NCBI RefSeq assembly: GCF_013315695.1
Contig: NZ_CP054353.1
Length of the DNA stretch: 64,000 nucleotides
Strand: one strand, 5' to 3'
From: Escherichia coli
Lineage (GTDB): Bacteria > Pseudomonadota > Gammaproteobacteria > Enterobacterales > Enterobacteriaceae
Positions 3,452-64,000 of this stretch are shown piece after piece. A program made the position numbers and the translations under genes. The notes beneath the pieces were generated by a model. It was not told the origin of the DNA and searched no databases. It saw only the letters and a list, made by a program, of their open reading frames with translations. Every line of letters starts with the position of its first letter. Within the stretch, counting starts at the first letter, position 1.

Positions 3452-4566
3452 ATGAAGGGACAGATAATGGAATCGCTCTCAGAAGGAACCACAGCAGGCT
3501 ACCAGCAAATCCACGACGGCATTATTCATCTGGTCGATAGCGCCCGGACGGAAACGGTACGTAGTGTTAACGCGTTAATGACCGCCACATACTGGGAAAT
3601 TGGCCGACGAATTGTCGAATTTGAACAAGGTGGCGAGGCCAGGGCTGCGTATGGTGCGCAGCTAATCAAGCGACTATCAAAGGATTTACGTCTAAGGTAT
3701 AAGCGTGGGTTTTCCACCAGGAATTTATGGCAGTTTAAGAATTTTTATATTTGTTTTCAACGAATTGAAATTGTGCAGACACTGTCTGCACAATTCGCCA
3801 GACACTATCTGGCGAATCTTGCCATTTAGCGCAACTGGCCAAATCCTTCCCCCTGCCCTGGTCCACTTACGTCCGTTTGCTTTCTGTTAAAAACGCTGAC
3901 GCTCGTAGCTTTTATGAGAAAGAGACACTCCGCTGTGGCTGGTCTGCTCGTCAGCTCGAACGGCAAATTGCGACCCAATTTTATGAGCGGACACTACTGT
4001 CACATGACAAATCAGCCATGCTGCAACAACACGCTCCTGCCGAGACGCATATTCTTCCGCAACGGGCGATACGCGATCCCTTTGTGCTCGAATTTCTGGA
4101 ATTGAAAGATGAATATTCAGAATCCGATTTTGAGGAGGCGCTGATCAACCACCTGATGGATTTCATGCTGGAACTTGGGGATGATTTTGCCTTTGTTAGT
4201 CGACAGCGAAGGTTACGCATTGATGACAACTGGTTTCGTGTCGATCTGCTGTTTTTCCACCGCCGTTTACGCTGCCTGCTAATCGTCGATCTAAAAGTGG
4301 GCAAATTCAGCTATAGCGATGCCGGACAGATGAATATGTATCTCAACTACGCCAAAGAGCACTGGACGCTACCGGATGAAAATCCGCCCATCGGTCTGAT
4401 TCTCTGTGCAGAGAAAGGAGTCGGAGAAGCGCATTATGCACTGGCTGGTTTGCCTAACACCGTTCTGGCGAGTGAATATAAGATGCAACTACCTGATGAA
4501 AAACGACTCGCGGATGAACTCGTTCGAACACAGGCGGTGTTAGAGGAAGGCTATAGACGCCGTTAA
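3452..4566 (+). pseudogene. yhcG: yhcG-like DUF1016/PDDEXK-type protein, split into two frames (3452-3829 and about 3769-4566)
   Basis: Two adjacent ORFs in different frames together cover one YhcG-like protein; the conserved LPWSxY...ARSFYE segment lies in the downstream frame; frames overlap at a palindrome-rich segment. Confidence 0.6.
3769..3817. repeat. two overlapping perfect palindromes (P1 3769-3795, P2 3793-3817) with shared core CAGACAC(T)(G/A)TCTG
   Basis: Read directly: AATTGTGCAGACAcTGTCTGCACAATT and ATTCGCCAGAcactaTCTGGCGAAT. Confidence 0.8.
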
Positions 4567-10101: not shown

Positions 10102-11648
10102 TCTGTAAGGTCAGTGTGATTAACATCATCAGTGACATCCTATCACAGGATTGAAAGTAGGGGGAAATGGCGGGGTTTTCTCTTTGTGCCTCATCATTAC
10201 TATAATTAACTGAATAATTAACTATTGCGAAAAATTAATGTAACGCAGATAAAAACATCCCGACTGAATTATTCATAAGACTATTAACAAGTATTATGAA
10301 TATTATGAATGTGTTCTTACAAAATAATCATAAGCGCATATTTTTTAATGAAAAATCACCTCATCTACAATTAAAAACACGACATCCGCACCATAAATAG
10401 CCTTGCAAAAAATATAACATCATTGTTTTCAATCTGCCGTTTATGGGATTGACCGTTTTCTTTTGACACGGAGTTCAACAATGTTCGGCATAATTATATC
10501 TGTCATCGTATTAATTACGATGGGCTATTTGATCCTGAAAAACTACAAACCTCAGGTGGTGCTGGCTGCCGCAGGTATCTTCCTGATGATGTGCGGTGTC
10601 TGGTTAGGGTTCGGTGGTGTGCTCGATCCCGCCAAAAGCAGCGGCTACTTGATCGTCGATATTTATAATGAAATCCTGCGCATGCTGTCCAACCGCATTG
10701 CCGGATTGGGGCTGTCGATTATGGCAGTGGGTGGTTATGCCCGCTATATGGAGCGCATAGGGGCCAGTCGCGCGATGGTGAGCTTGTTAAGCCGCCCGTT
10801 AAAACTCATTCGCTCGCCGTATATTATTCTGTCGGCAACTTACGTCATCGGCCAAATCATGGCGCAGTTTATTACCAGCGCCTCCGGTCTGGGTATGTTG
10901 CTGATGGTCACCTTATTTCCGACGCTGGTGAGTCTGGGAGTAAGTCGCCTCTCTGCGGTGGCGGTTATCGCAACCACGATGTCCATTGAGTGGGGGATTC
11001 TGGAAACGAACTCCATTTTTGCTGCCCAGGTCGCAGGAATGAAAATTGCCACTTACTTCTTCCACTACCAGCTTCCGGTCGCCTCTTGCGTCATTATCTC
11101 GGTGGCGATCTCCCACTTTTTCGTGCAACGCGCTTTCGACAAAAAAGATAAAAATATCAATCACGAACAGGCAGAGCAAAAAGCTCTCGATAATGTCCCG
11201 CCGCTCTATTACGCCATTTTACCGGTGATGCCGTTAATCCTGATGCTCGGCTCGCTGTTCCTTGCCCACGTCGGGCTGATGCAGTCAGAACTGCATCTGG
11301 TGGTGGTGATGTTACTGAGTTTGACGGTGACGATGTTTGTTGAGTTCTTCCACAAGCATAACTTGCGCGAAACAATGGACGATGTGCAGGCGTTTTTTGA
11401 CGGCATGGGTACGCAGTTTGCCAACGTGGTAACGCTGGTGGTCGCGGGTGAAATATTTGCGAAAGGCTTAACGACGATTGGCACTGTCGATGCGGTTATC
11501 AGGGGGGCGGAGCATTCTGGTCTGGGCGGTATTGGCGTGATGATTATTATGGCGCTGGTCATTGCCATTTGTGCCATTGTGATGGGCTCAGGCGGTGATG
11601 CTGCCAACTTACTGATTTAGTGTATGATGGTGTTTTTGAGGTGCTCCA

Positions 11649-11924
11649 GTGGCTTCTGTTTCTATCAGCTGTCCCTCCTGTTCAGCTACTGACGGGGTGG
11701 TGCGTAACGGCAAAAGCACCGCCGGACATCAGCGCTATCTCTGCTCTCACTGCCGTAAAACATGGCAACTGCAGTTCACTTACACCGCTTCTCAACCCGG
11801 TACGCACCAGAAAATCATTGATATGGCCATGAATGGCGTTGGATGCCGGGCAACAGCCCGCATTATGGGCGTTGGCCTCAACACGATTTTACGTCACTTA
11901 AAAAACTCAGGCCGCAGTCGGTAA
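11649..11924 (+). CDS. insA: IS1 InsA (transposition inhibitor / N-terminal part of transposase)
   Basis: 91-aa ORF with zinc-finger-like CPSC...CSHC motif typical of IS1 InsA. Confidence 0.9.
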
Positions 11925-12346
11925 CCTCGCGCATACAGCCGGGCAGTGACGTCATCGTCTGCGCGGAAATGGACGAACAGTGGGGCTATGTCGGGGCTAA
12001 ATCGCGCCAGCGCTGGCTGTTTTACGCGTATGACAGGCTCCGGAAGACGGTTGTTGCGCACGTATTCGGTGAACGCACTATGGCGACGCTGGGGCGTCTT
12101 ATGAGCCTGCTGTCACCCTTTGACGTGGTGATATGGATGACGGATGGCTGGCCGCTGTATGAATCCCGCCTGAAGGGAAAGCTGCACGTAATCAGCAAGC
12201 GATATACGCAGCGAATTGAGCGGCATAACCTGAATCTGAGGCAGCACCTGGCACGGCTGGGACGGAAGTCGCTGTCGTTCTCAAAATCGGTGGAGCTGCA
12301 TGACAAAGTCATCGGGCATTATCTGAACATAAAACACTATCAATAA
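11843..12346 (+). CDS. insB: IS1 InsB frame (expressed as InsAB' transposase by -1 frameshift)
   Basis: 167-aa ORF overlapping insA in the -1 frame, as in canonical IS1. Confidence 0.85.
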
Positions 12347-12637
12347 GTTGGAGTCATTACCCGCTCAGGCAATGCGCCGTTTATGTCATTTGCCAGTCTT
12401 ATTCCGAATATCGCAGCCGGACTACATGTACCAGCGGTTGTAATGATTATGCCGATGCATTTTGCCACGACGCTAGCGCGCGCTGTTTCGCCGATTACTG
12501 CGGTGGTGGTCGTTACGTCAGGAATTGCAGGCGTTTCGCCTTTTGCGGTAGTGAAGCGGACAGCGATCCCCATGGCAGTCGGTTTCGTGGTGAATATGAT
12601 TGCCACTATCACGCTATTTTATTAAGCGATTAAAAAG

Positions 12638-26875: not shown

Positions 26876-26912
26876 GGGGTCCCCTCACCCTAATCCCAGA
26901 GGGCGAGGGGAC
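26876..26912. repeat. GC-rich palindromic intergenic repeat (GGTCCCCTC...GAGGGGACC)
   Basis: 9-bp perfect inverted arms; shares the CCCCTCACCC...GGCGAGGGG pattern with the 8257-8289 copy. Confidence 0.65.
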
Positions 26913-26962: not shown

Positions 26963-28423
<1,461 letters not shown>

Positions 28424-41431: not shown

Positions 41432-42296
41432 CGCAACCTCCGTCATGCTTGAAAAAGCTTGTCGGAGTATGTGATGAATGCTGCAAACTCACCGAAGCCG
41501 ATTTTGCCACCAAATCGGCTTTTTTATTGTCACGCGGCAAATTCTGAATGCATCACATAGCCGCACTGCCGCCTGACAAAACAGTTTACCTTCTGCAAAA
41601 TGGGGGGAATAATCTGATTTTATTTGATTACAAATTAACCACTTAAACCTATTTAATGCTGAGCATTGTCAGTCGGTTGATTTTGCGTGCTTTAGCATTC
41701 ACATCTATCCAGACGATGCAGTGAAAATTGGGTAATCCCCAGCAACCGCTGCGTAATGTCGTCTATCTTGTCGCGATCCTGGCATCCCTACATTATTTGT
41801 GGTCTGTGAAGATTATCTCATTGCAGCCCCTCATCTTCGCAGGGCTGGCTTTACAGCTTTTCACCTTACGTTATAAGAAGTTCCGTCGATGATGGCGCTA
41901 ATTTCGTGAATTGTGCGGCTTGTTGCAAATTACACGGTGTTGAAGGTTATTTACATGTTAGCTGTTGATTATCTTCCCTGATAAGACCAGTATTTAGCTG
42001 CCAATTGCTACGAAATCGTTATAATGTGCGACCTCGTCCTCCCTGACGCAGTTTTTGCGCTGCGGAAAAGGTGACATTGGCGCAACGAAGGTATATTTTG
42101 TTTTTTGCCGGAGGATAGCAGCAGATCGCTGCACAATGTCCGTCAAGTCTAACATTGACACTCTGGGGCAAAATAGACCGGCGTCCCGGCCTGCTGGAAT
42201 TTATCGCTATGCATACAGCTGTCGGGGCATACGCTTTACAGACGGCGGTGAAACGCCTGTCACAATCACACTAAACAAAGAGTACGGAACCCACTC

Positions 42297-58235: not shown

Positions 58236-58898
58236 TTATATGACACTTAATTCATTCGTTTGATGAATTAATTTCGTTATGTTTTCATCTGGCATGAACA
58301 TTCTTAATACGTTATCGACCAGTGCGGGTGCTTGTTTATAAAGATCATAACCCGCCATATTCATTAACCAGTTTTGAACAATTCCGCTGAAGGCACCATC
58401 AATAATAATCATCACAACATCTAAATCGAGATTATTTGCTATACAACCTTGTTGCTGACATGCCTGCAATACTTCGCGGAGAGTCTGCGGATTAAAGCCC
58501 ATCTTTTCGCGTATCACTCCCTCTGCCAGCATCTCATCATTAAATTCACATTTGTGATATAAGATTTTCAGCAACGCCTGCTGGCGGGGAATTTTGGCAA
58601 TATATTGCAAGCCAACAATCAATTTTTCACGCAATTGCTGAAACGGGTCATGCTCTAACCCAGCAGTCAAGTGATCCTGGATTAACTCCCGCAATGAAGG
58701 CTGTTGCAACCACATCTCATTAAACAGTTGGGTCTTGTTCTCGAAGTGCCAGTAGATAGCGCCACGCGTAACGTTAGCGGCGTCGGCAATGTCGTTGAGC
58801 GTCGTCTTGCTTACGCCATGCTGCGCAAACTGGGCGATGGCAGTTTCAATCAGTTCTTGCCGGGTCTTCAGAGCTTCGGCTTTGGTTCTTTTTGCCAT
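58236..58898 (-). CDS. acrS: TetR-family repressor AcrS (EnvR)
   Basis: 220-aa TetR-type regulator; divergent from acrE. Confidence 0.93.
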   Translation of the reverse strand: MAKRTKAEALKTRQELIETAIAQFAQHGVSKTTLNDIADAANVTRGAIYWHFENKTQLFNEMWLQQPSLRELIQDHLTAGLEHDPFQQLREKLIVGLQYIAKIPRQQALLKILYHKCEFNDEMLAEGVIREKMGFNPQTLREVLQACQQQGCIANNLDLDVVMIIIDGAFSGIVQNWLMNMAGYDLYKQAPALVDNVLRMFMPDENITKLIHQTNELSVI

Positions 58899-59296: not shown

Positions 59297-60454
59297 ATGA
59301 CGAAACATGCCAGGTTTTTCCTCCTGCCCTCCTTTATTCTGATCTCCGCGGCTTTAATCGCCGGTTGTAACGATAAGGGAGAAGAGAAAGCTCACGTCGG
59401 TGAACCGCAGGTTACCGTTCATATTGTGAAAACGGCCCCGTTAGAAGTTAAGACTGAATTACCAGGCCGCACCAATGCTTACCGTATAGCCGAAGTTCGC
59501 CCACAGGTTAGCGGGATCGTACTGAGTCGCAATTTCACTGAAGGCAGCGATGTGCAAGCAGGCCAGTCTCTGTACCAGATCGATCCCGCGACCTATCAGG
59601 CAAGTTATGACAGCGCGAAAGGCGAACTGGCGAAAAGTGAAGCCGCCGCCGCCATCGCGCATTTGACGGTAAAACGTTACGTTCCGCTCGTGGGTACGAA
59701 ATACATCAGTCAGCAGGAGTACGACCAGGCCATTGCTGATGCTCGCCAGGCCGATGCCGCCGTGATTGCCGCAAAAGCCACAGTCGAAAGCGCTCGCATC
59801 AATCTCGCTTATACCAAAGTGACTGCGCCAATTAGCGGACGTATCGGCAAATCGACTGTGACCGAAGGCGCTCTTGTCACTAATGGGCAAACGACTGAAC
59901 TGGCGACTGTCCAGCAGCTCGATCCTATCTACGTTGATGTGACCCAATCCAGCAACGATTTTATGAGGCTGAAGCAATCCGTAGAGCAAGGAAATTTGCA
60001 TAAGGAAAACGCCACCAGCAACGTAGAGTTGGTCATGGAGAACGGTCAAACCTATCCCCTGAAAGGTACGCTGCAATTCTCCGATGTGACCGTTGATGAA
60101 AGCACCGGCTCCATAACCCTACGTGCTGTCTTCCCTAACCCGCAACATACGCTTTTGCCGGGTATGTTTGTGCGCGCACGGATTGATGAAGGCGTCCAAC
60201 CTGACGCCATTCTTATCCCGCAACAAGGCGTTAGCCGCACACCACGTGGTGCTGCAACCGTGCTGATTGTTAACAATAAAAGTCAGGTTGAAGCGCGCCC
60301 TGTCGTTGCCAGTCAGGCGATTGGCGATAAGTGGTTGATTAGCGAAGGTCTGAAATCTGGCGATCAAGTCATTGTCAGCGGCCTGCAAAAAGCGCGTCCG
60401 GGAGAGCAGGTTAAAGCCACTACCGATACCCCCGCAGATACTGCATCGAAGTAA
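59297..60454 (+). CDS. acrE: RND efflux membrane fusion protein AcrE
   Basis: 385-aa lipoprotein with a Cys in the signal peptide (LIAGC). Confidence 0.95.
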   Translation: MTKHARFFLLPSFILISAALIAGCNDKGEEKAHVGEPQVTVHIVKTAPLEVKTELPGRTNAYRIAEVRPQVSGIVLSRNFTEGSDVQAGQSLYQIDPATYQASYDSAKGELAKSEAAAAIAHLTVKRYVPLVGTKYISQQEYDQAIADARQADAAVIAAKATVESARINLAYTKVTAPISGRIGKSTVTEGALVTNGQTTELATVQQLDPIYVDVTQSSNDFMRLKQSVEQGNLHKENATSNVELVMENGQTYPLKGTLQFSDVTVDESTGSITLRAVFPNPQHTLLPGMFVRARIDEGVQPDAILIPQQGVSRTPRGAATVLIVNNKSQVEARPVVASQAIGDKWLISEGLKSGDQVIVSGLQKARPGEQVKATTDTPADTASK

Positions 60455-60465
60455 GGTAATCTGAC

Positions 60466-63246
60466 ATGGCAAACTTTTTTATTCGACGACCGATATTTGC
60501 ATGGGTGCTGGCCATTATTCTGATGATGGCGGGCGCACTGGCGATCCTACAATTGCCCGTCGCTCAGTATCCAACCATTGCACCGCCTGCGGTTTCTGTT
60601 TCAGCAAACTATCCGGGCGCTGATGCGCAGACTGTGCAGGATACGGTGACGCAGGTTATCGAACAGAATATGAACGGTATCGATAACCTGATGTATATGT
60701 CCTCCACCAGCGATTCCGCCGGTAGCGTGACAATTACCCTTACCTTCCAGTCCGGGACCGATCCTGATATCGCGCAAGTGCAGGTGCAGAACAAACACCA
60801 GCTCGCCACGCCGTTGCTGCCGCAGGAGGTTCAGCAGCAGGGGATCAGTGTTGAAAAGTCCAGTAGCAGCTATTTGATGGTGGCGGGCTTTGTCTCTGAT
60901 AACCCAGGCACCACACAGGACGATATCTCGGACTATGTGGCCTCTAACGTTAAAGATACGCTTAGCCGTCTGAATGGCGTCGGTGACGTACAGCTTTTCG
61001 GCGCACAGTATGCGATGCGTATCTGGCTGGACGCCGATCTGCTAAACAAATATAAACTGACACCGGTTGATGTGATTAACCAGTTGAAGGTACAGAACGA
61101 TCAGATCGCTGCCGGACAGTTGGGCGGAACGCCAGCGTTACCAGGGCAACAGTTGAACGCCTCGATTATTGCTCAGACGCGGTTAAAAAATCCGGAAGAA
61201 TTCGGCAAAGTGACCTTGCGCGTAAACAGTGACGGCTCGGTGGTACGCCTGAAAGATGTCGCACGGGTTGAACTTGGCGGTGAAAACTATAACGTTATCG
61301 CTCGCATCAACGATAAACCGGCGGCGGGCCTGGGTATTAAGCTGGCAACCGGCGCGAATGCTCTCGATACCGCGAAAGCCATTAAGGCAAAACTGGCGGA
61401 ATTACAGCCATTCTTCCCGCAGGGAATGAAGGTTCTCTACCCTTATGACACCACACCATTCGTCCAGCTTTCTATTCACGAAGTGGTAAAAACGCTGTTC
61501 GAAGCCATTATGCTGGTGTTCCTGGTGATGTATCTGTTCTTGCAGAATATGCGAGCAACGCTGATCCCCACCATTGCGGTACCCGTGGTGTTGTTAGGGA
61601 CGTTTGCCATCCTCGCCGCTTTTGGTTACTCCATCAACACACTAACGATGTTCGGGATGGTGCTTGCCATCGGGCTGCTCGTCGATGATGCGATAGTGGT
61701 GGTGGAGAACGTCGAGCGCGTGATGATGGAGGATAAGCTCCCGCCAAAAGAAGCGACGGAAAAATCGATGTCGCAAATTCAGGGCGCACTGGTGGGTATC
61801 GCGATGGTGCTGTCAGCGGTATTTATTCCAATGGCATTCTTCGGCGGTTCTACTGGGGCAATTTACCGCCAGTTCTCTATCACCATCGTTTCGGCAATGG
61901 CGCTTTCTGTTCTGGTGGCATTGATTCTTACCCCAGCGTTATGTGCAACACTGCTCAAACCCGTCTCTGCTGAGCATCACGAAAATAAGGGCGGTTTCTT
62001 CGGCTGGTTTAATACCACCTTCGATCATAGCGTTAACCACTACACCAACAGCGTCGGCAAAATCCTCGGTTCCACAGGACGATATTTACTGATCTATGCA
62101 CTAATTGTTGCTGGAATGGTGGTGTTGTTTTTACGTCTTCCGTCTTCCTTCTTACCTGAAGAGGATCAGGGAGTCTTTCTGACTATGATTCAGTTACCCG
62201 CTGGCGCGACGCAAGAGCGGACGCAAAAAGTGTTGGATCAAGTGACGGATTACTATCTGAAGAACGAGAAAGCGAACGTAGAAAGTGTCTTTACGGTTAA
62301 CGGCTTTAGCTTCAGCGGCCAGGCACAAAACGCCGGTATGGCCTTCGTCAGTCTGAAACCGTGGGAAGAGCGTAGTGGTGACGAAAACAGTGCGGAAGCG
62401 GTAATCCATCGTGCCAAAATGGAATTGGGCAAGATCCGCGACGGTTTTGTCATTCCATTCAATATGCCAGCCATTGTTGAACTGGGCACGGCAACGGGTT
62501 TCGACTTTGAGTTAATTGATCAGGCTGGGCTGGGTCACGATGCCCTGACCCAGGCCCGTAACCAGTTGCTTGGCATGGCGGCGCAACATCCTGCCAGCTT
62601 AGTCAGCGTGCGTCCTAATGGTCTGGAAGACACCGCGCAGTTTAAACTGGAAGTTGACCAGGAAAAGGCGCAGGCATTAGGTGTTTCACTTTCTGACATC
62701 AATCAGACCATTTCAACGGCGTTGGGTGGGACTTACGTTAACGACTTCATTGACCGTGGTCGCGTGAAAAAGGTGTATGTTCAGGCGGATGCCAAATTCC
62801 GTATGCTGCCAGAAGATGTCGATAAACTTTATGTCCGCAGCGCCAACGGCGAAATGGTGCCATTCTCTGCCTTTACCACTGCACATTGGGTGTATGGCTC
62901 TCCGCGACTGGAGCGCTACAACGGTCTGCCGTCAATGGAGATTCAGGGGGAAGCCGCGCCAGGAACCAGTTCCGGCGATGCCATGGCGTTGATGGAAAAC
63001 ATTGCGTCAAAATTACCGGCGGGCATTGGTTATGACTGGACGGGTATGTCATATCAGGAACGTTTATCGGGAAACCAGGCTCCCGCTCTGGTAGCAATTT
63101 CCTTTGAGGTTGTTTTCCTGTGCCTTGCTGCACTCTATGAAAGCTGGTCAATTCCTGTCTCGGTTATGTTGGTCGTGCCGTTAGGGATTGTCGGCGTGCT
63201 ACTGGCGGCAACACTCTTTAATCAAAAAAATGACGTCTACTTTATG
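60466..63246 (+). pseudogene. acrF: RND efflux transporter AcrF, truncated at codon ~927 by IS1
   Basis: AcrB-family ORF ([20 protein letters not shown]...) runs into the IS1 left inverted repeat at 63247 and stops inside it; full length expected about 1034 aa. Confidence 0.88.
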
Positions 63247-63301
63247 GGTGATGCTGCCAACTTACTGATTTAGTGTATGATGGTGTTTTTGAGGTGCTCC
63301 A

Positions 63302-63577
63302 GTGGCTTCTGTTTCTATCAGCTGTCCCTCCTGTTCAGCTACTGACGGGGTGGTGCGTAACGGCAAAAGCACCGCCGGACATCAGCGCTATCTCTGCTCT
63401 CACTGCCGTAAAACATGGCAACTGCAGTTCACTTACACCGCTTCTCAACCCGGTACGCACCAGAAAATCATTGATATGGCCATGAATGGCGTTGGATGCC
63501 GGGCAACAGCCCGCATTATGGGCGTTGGCCTCAACACGATTTTACGTCACTTAAAAAACTCAGGCCGCAGTCGGTAA
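63302..63577 (+). CDS. insA: IS1 InsA
   Basis: Protein identical to the insA of the first copy. Confidence 0.9.
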
Positions 63578-63999
63578 CCTCGCGCATACAGCCGGGCAGT
63601 GACGTCATCGTCTGCGCGGAAATGGACGAACAGTGGGGCTATGTCGGGGCTAAATCGCGCCAGCGCTGGCTGTTTTACGCGTATGACAGGCTCCGGAAGA
63701 CGGTTGTTGCGCACGTATTCGGTGAACGCACTATGGCGACGCTGGGGCGTCTTATGAGCCTGCTGTCACCCTTTGACGTGGTGATATGGATGACGGATGG
63801 CTGGCCGCTGTATGAATCCCGCCTGAAGGGAAAGCTGCACGTAATCAGCAAGCGATATACGCAGCGAATTGAGCGGCATAACCTGAATCTGAGGCAGCAC
63901 CTGGCACGGCTGGGACGGAAGTCGCTGTCGTTCTCAAAATCGGTGGAGCTGCATGACAAAGTCATCGGGCATTATCTGAACATAAAACACTATCAATAA
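63496..63999 (+). CDS. insB: IS1 InsB frame
   Basis: Protein identical to the insB of the first copy. Confidence 0.85.
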
Positions 64000-64000
64000 G

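Follow-up and report, generated by a model that had tools for sequence, protein, structure and literature searches.

An IS1 element stands at the very end of the 64,000-nucleotide stretch of Escherichia coli DNA analysed here (the window), directly adjoining the reading frame of acrF, and this arrangement raises the question of whether the permease gene has truly been broken by transposition and, if so, what has become of the locus beyond the window's edge. A sequence-only reading had proposed that the element interrupts acrF near codon 927 and removes some 107 C-terminal residues, likely including the terminal transmembrane segments, while acrS and acrE stay intact. The features of the window on which the answer depends are the following:

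58236..58898, minus strand: acrS (envR), TetR-type repressor gene, intact, 220 aa (ORF and RefSeq annotation)
59297..60454, plus strand: acrE, periplasmic adaptor gene, intact, 385 aa (ORF, relatives)
60466..63246, plus strand: acrF 5' part, codons 1-927 of 1034 (ORF, relatives, profiles)
63238..63246, plus strand: TACTTTATG, 9-bp target-site duplication of IS1, left copy (right copy seen only in AF3 and KE136770.1)
63247..63273, plus strand: IS1-encoded tail of the chimeric ORF, GDAANLLI and TAG (direct read, translation)
63247..64000, plus strand: IS1 (IS1A type), nt 1-754 of 768, ending at the window edge (read, ORFs, profiles)
11594..12361, plus strand: the other IS1, a full 768-bp copy, which interrupts a dcuC-family (yhcL) gene

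The acrF frame that starts at 60466 enters IS1 at 63247 and ends at a TAG codon at 63271-63273, and the resulting ORF (60466..63273, plus strand, 935 aa in the ORF list and by translation) is a chimera of 927 AcrF codons, eight IS1-encoded codons (GDAANLLI) and the stop. The claim that the frame terminates within the left inverted repeat was nearly right: the stop does lie inside IS1, but as IS1 nt 25-27 it falls 2 nt beyond the canonical 23-bp repeat. Intact AcrF of close relatives is 1034 aa long (WP_016234949.1) and the window keeps 927 residues, so that exactly 107 are lost; by translation against these relatives the break follows codon 927 of 1034, and both its position and the size of the loss are thus as had been proposed. 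The retained part is 925/927 identical to WP_016234949.1 (two differences), scores 1645 bits against TIGR00915 (cut-off 940) and stands in the gene order acrS-acrE-acrF, all of which places it in the AcrF/HAE-1 RND family. NCBIfam RND-permease profiles match it at residues 1-927 only, up to about profile position 927 of ~1050, and the 12-helix architecture (about 1034 aa) of a functional HAE-1 RND permease is lacking. In MSB1_4I and AF3, two genomes with the same junction, RefSeq calls acrF 'incomplete; missing C-terminus' beside an IS1A-family transposase. On its reading frame, we classify the window acrF as a pseudogene.

A Kyte-Doolittle scan of AcrF, in which twelve hydrophobic regions were recognized, bears out the suggestion that terminal transmembrane segments are among the lost residues, as the final three segments (926-945, 971-994 and 1000-1034, i.e. 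TM10-12) lie beyond the break. Over its whole length, the 184-residue C-terminal part of intact AcrF aligns with residues 852-1033 of E. coli AcrB; in this alignment AcrF M927 corresponds to AcrB 928, and AcrF K939, R970 and T977, all past residue 927, correspond to AcrB K940, R971 and T978. We take AcrB D407, D408, K940, R971 and T978 to form the transmembrane proton relay, in which K940, R971 and T978 partner D407/D408. Truncated AcrF still has D407 and D408, with three of the five relay residues gone. As the 935-aa product is without both TM10-12 and these three residues, AcrEF-TolC would not be a proton-driven pump, and it follows by prediction that truncated AcrF cannot be a working RND permease.

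The other two genes of the locus are full length, at 220 aa and 385 aa, in agreement with the earlier claim. Compared with the intact relative MS 21-1, acrS has one substitution (V143 versus I143), and its protein accession is the same as in AF10 and AF14; its RefSeq annotation was taken from the identical stretch in MSB1_4I. The window AcrE is identical to MS 21-1 AcrE (WP_000160360.1).

The interrupting element has all the attributes of IS1. Its 23-nt left end, GGTGATGCTGCCAACTTACTGAT, is found on the plus strand at 63247-63269 (IRL) and at 11594-11616, with none expected by chance, and the two copies in the window are identical (754/754). Within the acrF copy, insA (63302-63577, 91 aa) carries the A6C frameshift motif TTAAAAAAC at 63551-63559 (IS1 nt 305), and the insB' frame ends at 63999. 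InsA matches positions 1-81 and InsB positions 75-199 of NF033558 ('IS1 family transposase'), and the joining of insA and insB' by a -1 frameshift at the A6C motif, together with the transposase domains, is characteristic of the family; Pfam Zn_ribbon_InsA, HTH_Tnp_IS1 and DDE_Tnp_IS1 match the same genes in a relative's locus (L008), and the RefSeq label is 'IS1-like element IS1A family transposase, programmed frameshift'. As had been stated, the right junction lies outside the window: the last 14 nt of IS1 (TTGGAGTCATTACC) and the junction itself fall past 64000. The full 768-bp element with its right inverted repeat ...TTGGAGTCATTACC was read at the same locus of MSB1_4I, and both this copy and that at 11594-12361 have the IS1-family length of ~768 bp with imperfect terminal inverted repeats of ~23 bp. 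The K-12 IS1A-type element is likewise of 768 bp, with ends GGTGATGCTGCC... and ...GGAGTCATTACC, insA and insB', the A6C motif and a 9-bp (or 8-bp) target duplication, and identity to an MG1655 IS1 copy annotated as IS1A family by RefSeq is 99.1%. Known IS1 insertions do not differ in kind from this one, which is distinguished solely by its target (acrF codon 927/928) and its host clone.

The other copy in the window, in yhcL, is flanked by an 8-bp duplication, GCTCAGGC, with both gene fragments kept, and this insertion is common to the window, MSB1_4I and AF3. Short-read contigs carrying the acrF junction have lengths of 51,136, 51,131, 51,031 and 50,989 bp, approximately the distance between the window's two IS1 copies, which suggests that both insertions are present in the samples concerned. 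IS1 matches at least 40 pieces in each of MSB1_4I, AF3, AF10 and AF14, the median genome having 10-11 places, and the lineage is therefore IS1-rich.

When 5,426 complete E. coli genomes were searched for the acrF-IS1 left junction, two had it in one piece at 100% identity: MSB1_4I (NZ_LR898874.1), from a rectal swab in Australia, and AF3 (NZ_OZ547117.1), from a blood culture in the UK. It was also present in two Broad scaffolds, KE701936.1 (UMEA 3190-1) and KE136770.1. Database records of 23 contigs contain exactly this 935-aa chimeric protein (one being EQX67232.1, from UMEA 3190-1), and in the assembly collection it is found in 31 blocks, among them human-gut metagenome assemblies from ENA and samples from JGI; the short-read contigs end tens of bases into IS1 from acrF. 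MS 21-1, AF10 and AF14, the nearest relatives that lack the insertion, have an intact acrF (WP_016234949.1, with L111 and V881) and align perfectly up to the junction base. In AF3 and KE136770.1, TACTTTATG is found on both IS1 sides, as a target-site duplication; its right copy is absent, by deletion, from MSB1_4I and UMEA 3190-1. These observations bear directly on the possibility, foreseen in the sequence-only reading, that misassembly or a scaffold join has placed the IS1 at the window's edge. Such an artefact, for instance a collapsed repeat, might be suspected from the high repetition of IS1 in the clone (at least 40 pieces in MSB1_4I and AF3) and from the window ending inside the element, but the identical junction recurs in assemblies made independently of one another, from long reads, as scaffolds, from short reads and from metagenomes, and the 9-bp duplication flanks the element in AF3 and KE136770.1. 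Since the same junction is present in independent assemblies and intact relatives align exactly to it, misassembly is excluded for all practical purposes; the insertion is real and no scaffold join. The acrF::IS1 allele is already annotated as a pseudogene in public genomes and is known in kind, as routine gene loss; a literature search found no paper describing this particular allele.

The right side of the IS1 was mapped on the intact MS 21-1 locus as wild-type reference (L004 coordinates), and the relatives were found in two states. MSB1_4I and UMEA 3190-1 (KE701936.1), both collinear with the window, have a deletion in which the IS1 right end, ...GTCATTACC, directly adjoins CGTTAATAAGAGAG, 55 bp upstream of the yhdV start; the junction gtcattacc/cgttaataag is the same in these two independent assemblies. 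The IS1 end adjoins L004 27768, and the absent 521 bp (27247-27767) comprise acrF codons 928-1034 with the stop, a terminator hairpin (27580-27605) and 197 of the 252 bp of the acrF-yhdV spacer. The end of the element is thus kept exactly, its flank joined to a distant position and one duplication lost, as in an adjacent deletion. AF3 and KE136770.1, which are identical to each other over 4.4 kb, have an inversion instead: they keep the acrF 3' remnant, starting with TACTTTATG, and their acrS-acrE spacer contains another IS1, whose duplication is CACCTAATG. The segment containing acrE and the 5' part of acrF is inverted between the two inverted IS1 copies, which in AF3 (L002) are placed as follows:

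L002 1448-2215: one IS1 copy flanking the inverted segment
L002 6500-7267: the other IS1 copy flanking the inverted segment

The TACTTTATG and CACCTAATG duplications are exchanged, as predicted for homologous recombination between inverted repeats. As the remnant in AF3 and KE136770.1 is flanked by the 9-bp TACTTTATG, the founding event was a true IS1 transposition, and deletion and inversion are alternative later rearrangements of one insertion allele. The acrS-acrE spacer is also the site of published IS insertions that activate acrEF; in AF3 and KE136770.1 the permease gene there is already dead. The two right-junction sequences are GTCATTACCCGTTAATAAGAG and GTCATTACCTACTTTATGGTG, and a right side with the remnant retained would read GTCATTACC and then TACTTTATGGTGGGC. 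A scan of metagenome contigs with a degenerate pattern for both right junctions gave no hits, as did the left-junction control in spite of the JGI carriers. For the 108-aa product of an acrF remnant, 1,587 blocks were found, the majority of them with a frameshifted acrF from other lineages, and the product is therefore not specific for retention of the remnant.

In their end products these rearrangements resemble classical IS events, the loss starting exactly at the IS1 end with one duplication gone in MSB1_4I and UMEA 3190-1, and the inversion lying between inverted copies with exchanged duplications in AF3 and KE136770.1; by comparison with the classical IS1 deletions and inversions, the mechanism here is deduced from the end products. 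Reif and Saedler are said to have dealt with IS1-promoted adjacent deletions, among other topics of classical IS1 genetics, in 1975.

The end of acrF has also been struck in other lineages. An IS4-family element (442-aa transposase) lies in acrF of an unrelated lineage (GCA_964037445.1, ~96% identity), and its 13-bp duplication, CTACTTTATGGTG, shares bases with TACTTTATG, the duplication made by IS1, so the same ~10 bp have been hit by two elements. The A7 run at 63223-63229 is A6 in two assemblies of another lineage (CP027552.1 and GCA_046575735.1), splitting acrF into ORFs of 930 aa and 108 aa at 17 bp upstream of the IS1 site; this candidate variant may be a real frameshift or a homopolymer sequencing error. 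Independent IS1 events of the same orientation were mapped to L004 27091-28481, by a search design that favours one orientation. These lesions are the following:

Window equivalent 63235-63249 (L028 1560-1570 and 2990-3005): IS4 insertion in acrF
Strain 315 (L013): IS1 cuts acrF at codon 875; 972 bp deleted, including yhdV
CU532-9 (L015): IS1 in the acrF stop codon; 911-bp deletion to yhdW codon 3
A10 (L017): IS1; yhdV deleted
MB51 (L016) and M172-1 (L014): simple IS1 insertions with duplications

The acrF-3'/yhdV/yhdW region is thus a modest local IS1 hot spot. We consider it improbable that the acrF end and the acrF-yhdV-yhdW spacers form a genuine mobile-element hot spot with acrF under recurrent loss in natural E. 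coli; if the clustering did stem from selection, or from a structurally favoured target, rather than from chance hits in a silent operon that the cell can spare, the IS1 allele of the window would be one case of convergent AcrEF loss in host-associated clones. Elsewhere in the window, the RefSeq annotation of AF3, in which the stretch is near-identical, marks a frameshifted pseudogene with a PDDEXK nuclease domain at ~3467-4566 and, at ~41592-41894, a fragment of the cytochrome b family that contains an internal stop.

Which of the two states the window genome itself has was approached through its relatives. The window is not MSB1_4I, an identity rejected despite a one-piece '100.0%' match, since six SNPs and one indel (1 bp, in a G run at 26900) separate them in 64 kb, AF3 being similarly distant; it is a third isolate of the clone. 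Its acrS and acrE are ordered as in the wild type and the spacer between them is free of IS1; it is therefore not in the inversion state. Two sites only separate the sub-lineages, polarised by the intact-acrF outgroup (MS 21-1 at both, AF10 and AF14 at 60797 only). 45083A is common to the window and MSB1_4I, and 60797A (AcrF L111H) to the window, MSB1_4I, UMEA 3190-1 and all short-read carriers examined; AF3 and KE136770.1 keep the ancestral bases. The UMEA 3190-1 stretch (L007) contained no informative site for placing the window relative to that strain. As the window is collinear with the deletion type and carries L111H, the sequence past 64000 most likely continues with TTGGAGTCATTACC, then CGTTAATAAGAGAG and then yhdV, and the relatives make it fairly likely that the window genome has the deletion at the IS1 right end. 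The earlier proposal was to extend the sequence past 64000 so as to find the 3' remnant and target duplication; such an extension would probably find neither, because both have been deleted beside the IS1 in the two collinear relatives. Retention of the simple insertion in the window genome (IS1, a second TACTTTATG and a 324-bp acrF 3' remnant, with no deletion) has to be weighed against this. That state must once have existed, since AF3 and KE136770.1 retain both remnant and duplication; the window represents an isolate of its own, whose private 51044A recurs in a single short-read contig (L022) only; and every short-read contig, L022 included, stops inside IS1. The un-inverted, undeleted state was seen in no assembly examined, however, and both collinear L111H assemblies carry the deletion although they come from different continents and years, and we regard retention as rather unlikely.

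The deletion itself most likely arose, judging from its end product, by intramolecular (replicative) transposition of IS1, the classical 'adjacent deletion'. Homologous recombination with a second, directly repeated IS1 at L004 27767/27768 would leave an identical product, and independent IS1 elements of the same orientation do occur in the acrF-yhdV-yhdW spacers of MB51 (27676-27684) and M172-1 (28333-28342), both with duplications. An IS1 at 27767/27768 was found in none of the 5,426 genomes searched, and at the acrF locus of strains 315, CU532-9 and A10 one IS1 is present in each case, the DNA beside its right end having been deleted. A right-end-side deletion beside a single IS1 is what one-ended IS1-promoted deletion predicts in classical genetics. 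Recombination is accordingly a possible but less probable origin of the 521-bp loss than adjacent deletion. Whatever its route, the loss (or the insertion before it) could also have been adaptive, through selection against AcrF or through rewiring of yhdV/yhdWXYZ expression by the IS1 right end. The allele persists in a clone that has been recovered from the human gut and from blood, in Australia and the UK among other places, acrF has been hit repeatedly in other lineages (also PMC10202319), and the deletion takes the acrF terminator (L004 27580-27605) together with the sole promoter-like match upstream of yhdV (27647-27674). Against this, acrEF is reported to be H-NS-silenced (PMC10202319), so that its loss should be close to neutral; the clone contains many IS1 copies, which have made pseudogenes elsewhere too, dcuC/yhcL among them; and scanning for promoters and terminators around yhdV gave nothing above chance except the obvious acrF terminator hairpin. 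An adaptive origin is, in our judgement, very improbable.

In our preferred account, a 768-bp IS1 inserted between acrF codons 927 and 928 in an ancestor of the clone, duplicating the 9-bp TACTTTATG; the acrEF message now enters the IS1 left end and translation ends after eight foreign codons, with acrS and acrE remaining intact and the allele being inherited vertically. Further decay of acrF may have followed, as V881E (codon 63106-63108, in hydrophobic segment 8) is present in all IS1 carriers and L111H (codon 60796-60798) only in the non-inverted sub-lineage, both being radical changes relative to the intact relatives. These substitutions are consistent with relaxed constraint after inactivation, two sites being too few for proof. 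By one secondary route, sequence was deleted from the IS1 right end (MSB1_4I and UMEA 3190-1); by another, a second IS1 entered the acrS-acrE spacer, with subsequent inversion of the acrE-acrF5' segment (AF3 and KE136770.1). We hold this account as a whole, from transposition into acrF through vertical inheritance and decay to the two secondary rearrangements, to be highly probable.

Loss of AcrF has a precedent in ST11/O157:H7, where acrF is inactivated throughout the lineage (Pugh et al. 2023, PMC10202319) by an insertion of 45 bp that brings in two stop codons near nt 1861-1914, and where the gene fails to complement MG1655 delta-acrB delta-acrF and is thus non-functional; H-NS silencing of acrF, and variability greater than that of acrB, are reported in the same paper (PMC10202319). 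The two cases are alike in having an inherited truncating lesion of acrF in a natural lineage with acrE kept, and differ in that the lesion here is a 768-bp IS1 at codon 927, followed by deletion or inversion, and the evidence for it is that of sequence. A second known system is the activation of the silent acrEF operon by IS1, IS2 or IS10 inserted upstream (Kobayashi 2001; Jellen-Ritter and Kern 2001; Olliver 2005, as these are cited in PMC9330008 and PMC8764528). The element family and locus are the same, and AF3 and KE136770.1 do have an IS1 in the acrS-acrE spacer, whereas the IS1 of the window lies inside the coding sequence and acts as a knock-out, with no IS1 upstream of acrE.

Beyond bookkeeping, the finding has little significance. 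It identifies a human-associated, IS1-rich E. coli clone that is predicted to be without functional AcrF, for which resistance predictions and pangenome counts would consequently be wrong if they take all six RND pumps of K-12 for granted; the same point on RND-pump assumptions has been made for ST11 (PMC10202319). In this clone the escape of acrAB-deficient or inhibitor-treated cells through activation of acrEF by an upstream IS is predicted to be closed. The junction and its two derived forms, deletion and inversion, are convenient clonal markers, and the locus provides a natural example of the effect of one IS1 copy on its neighbourhood over time.
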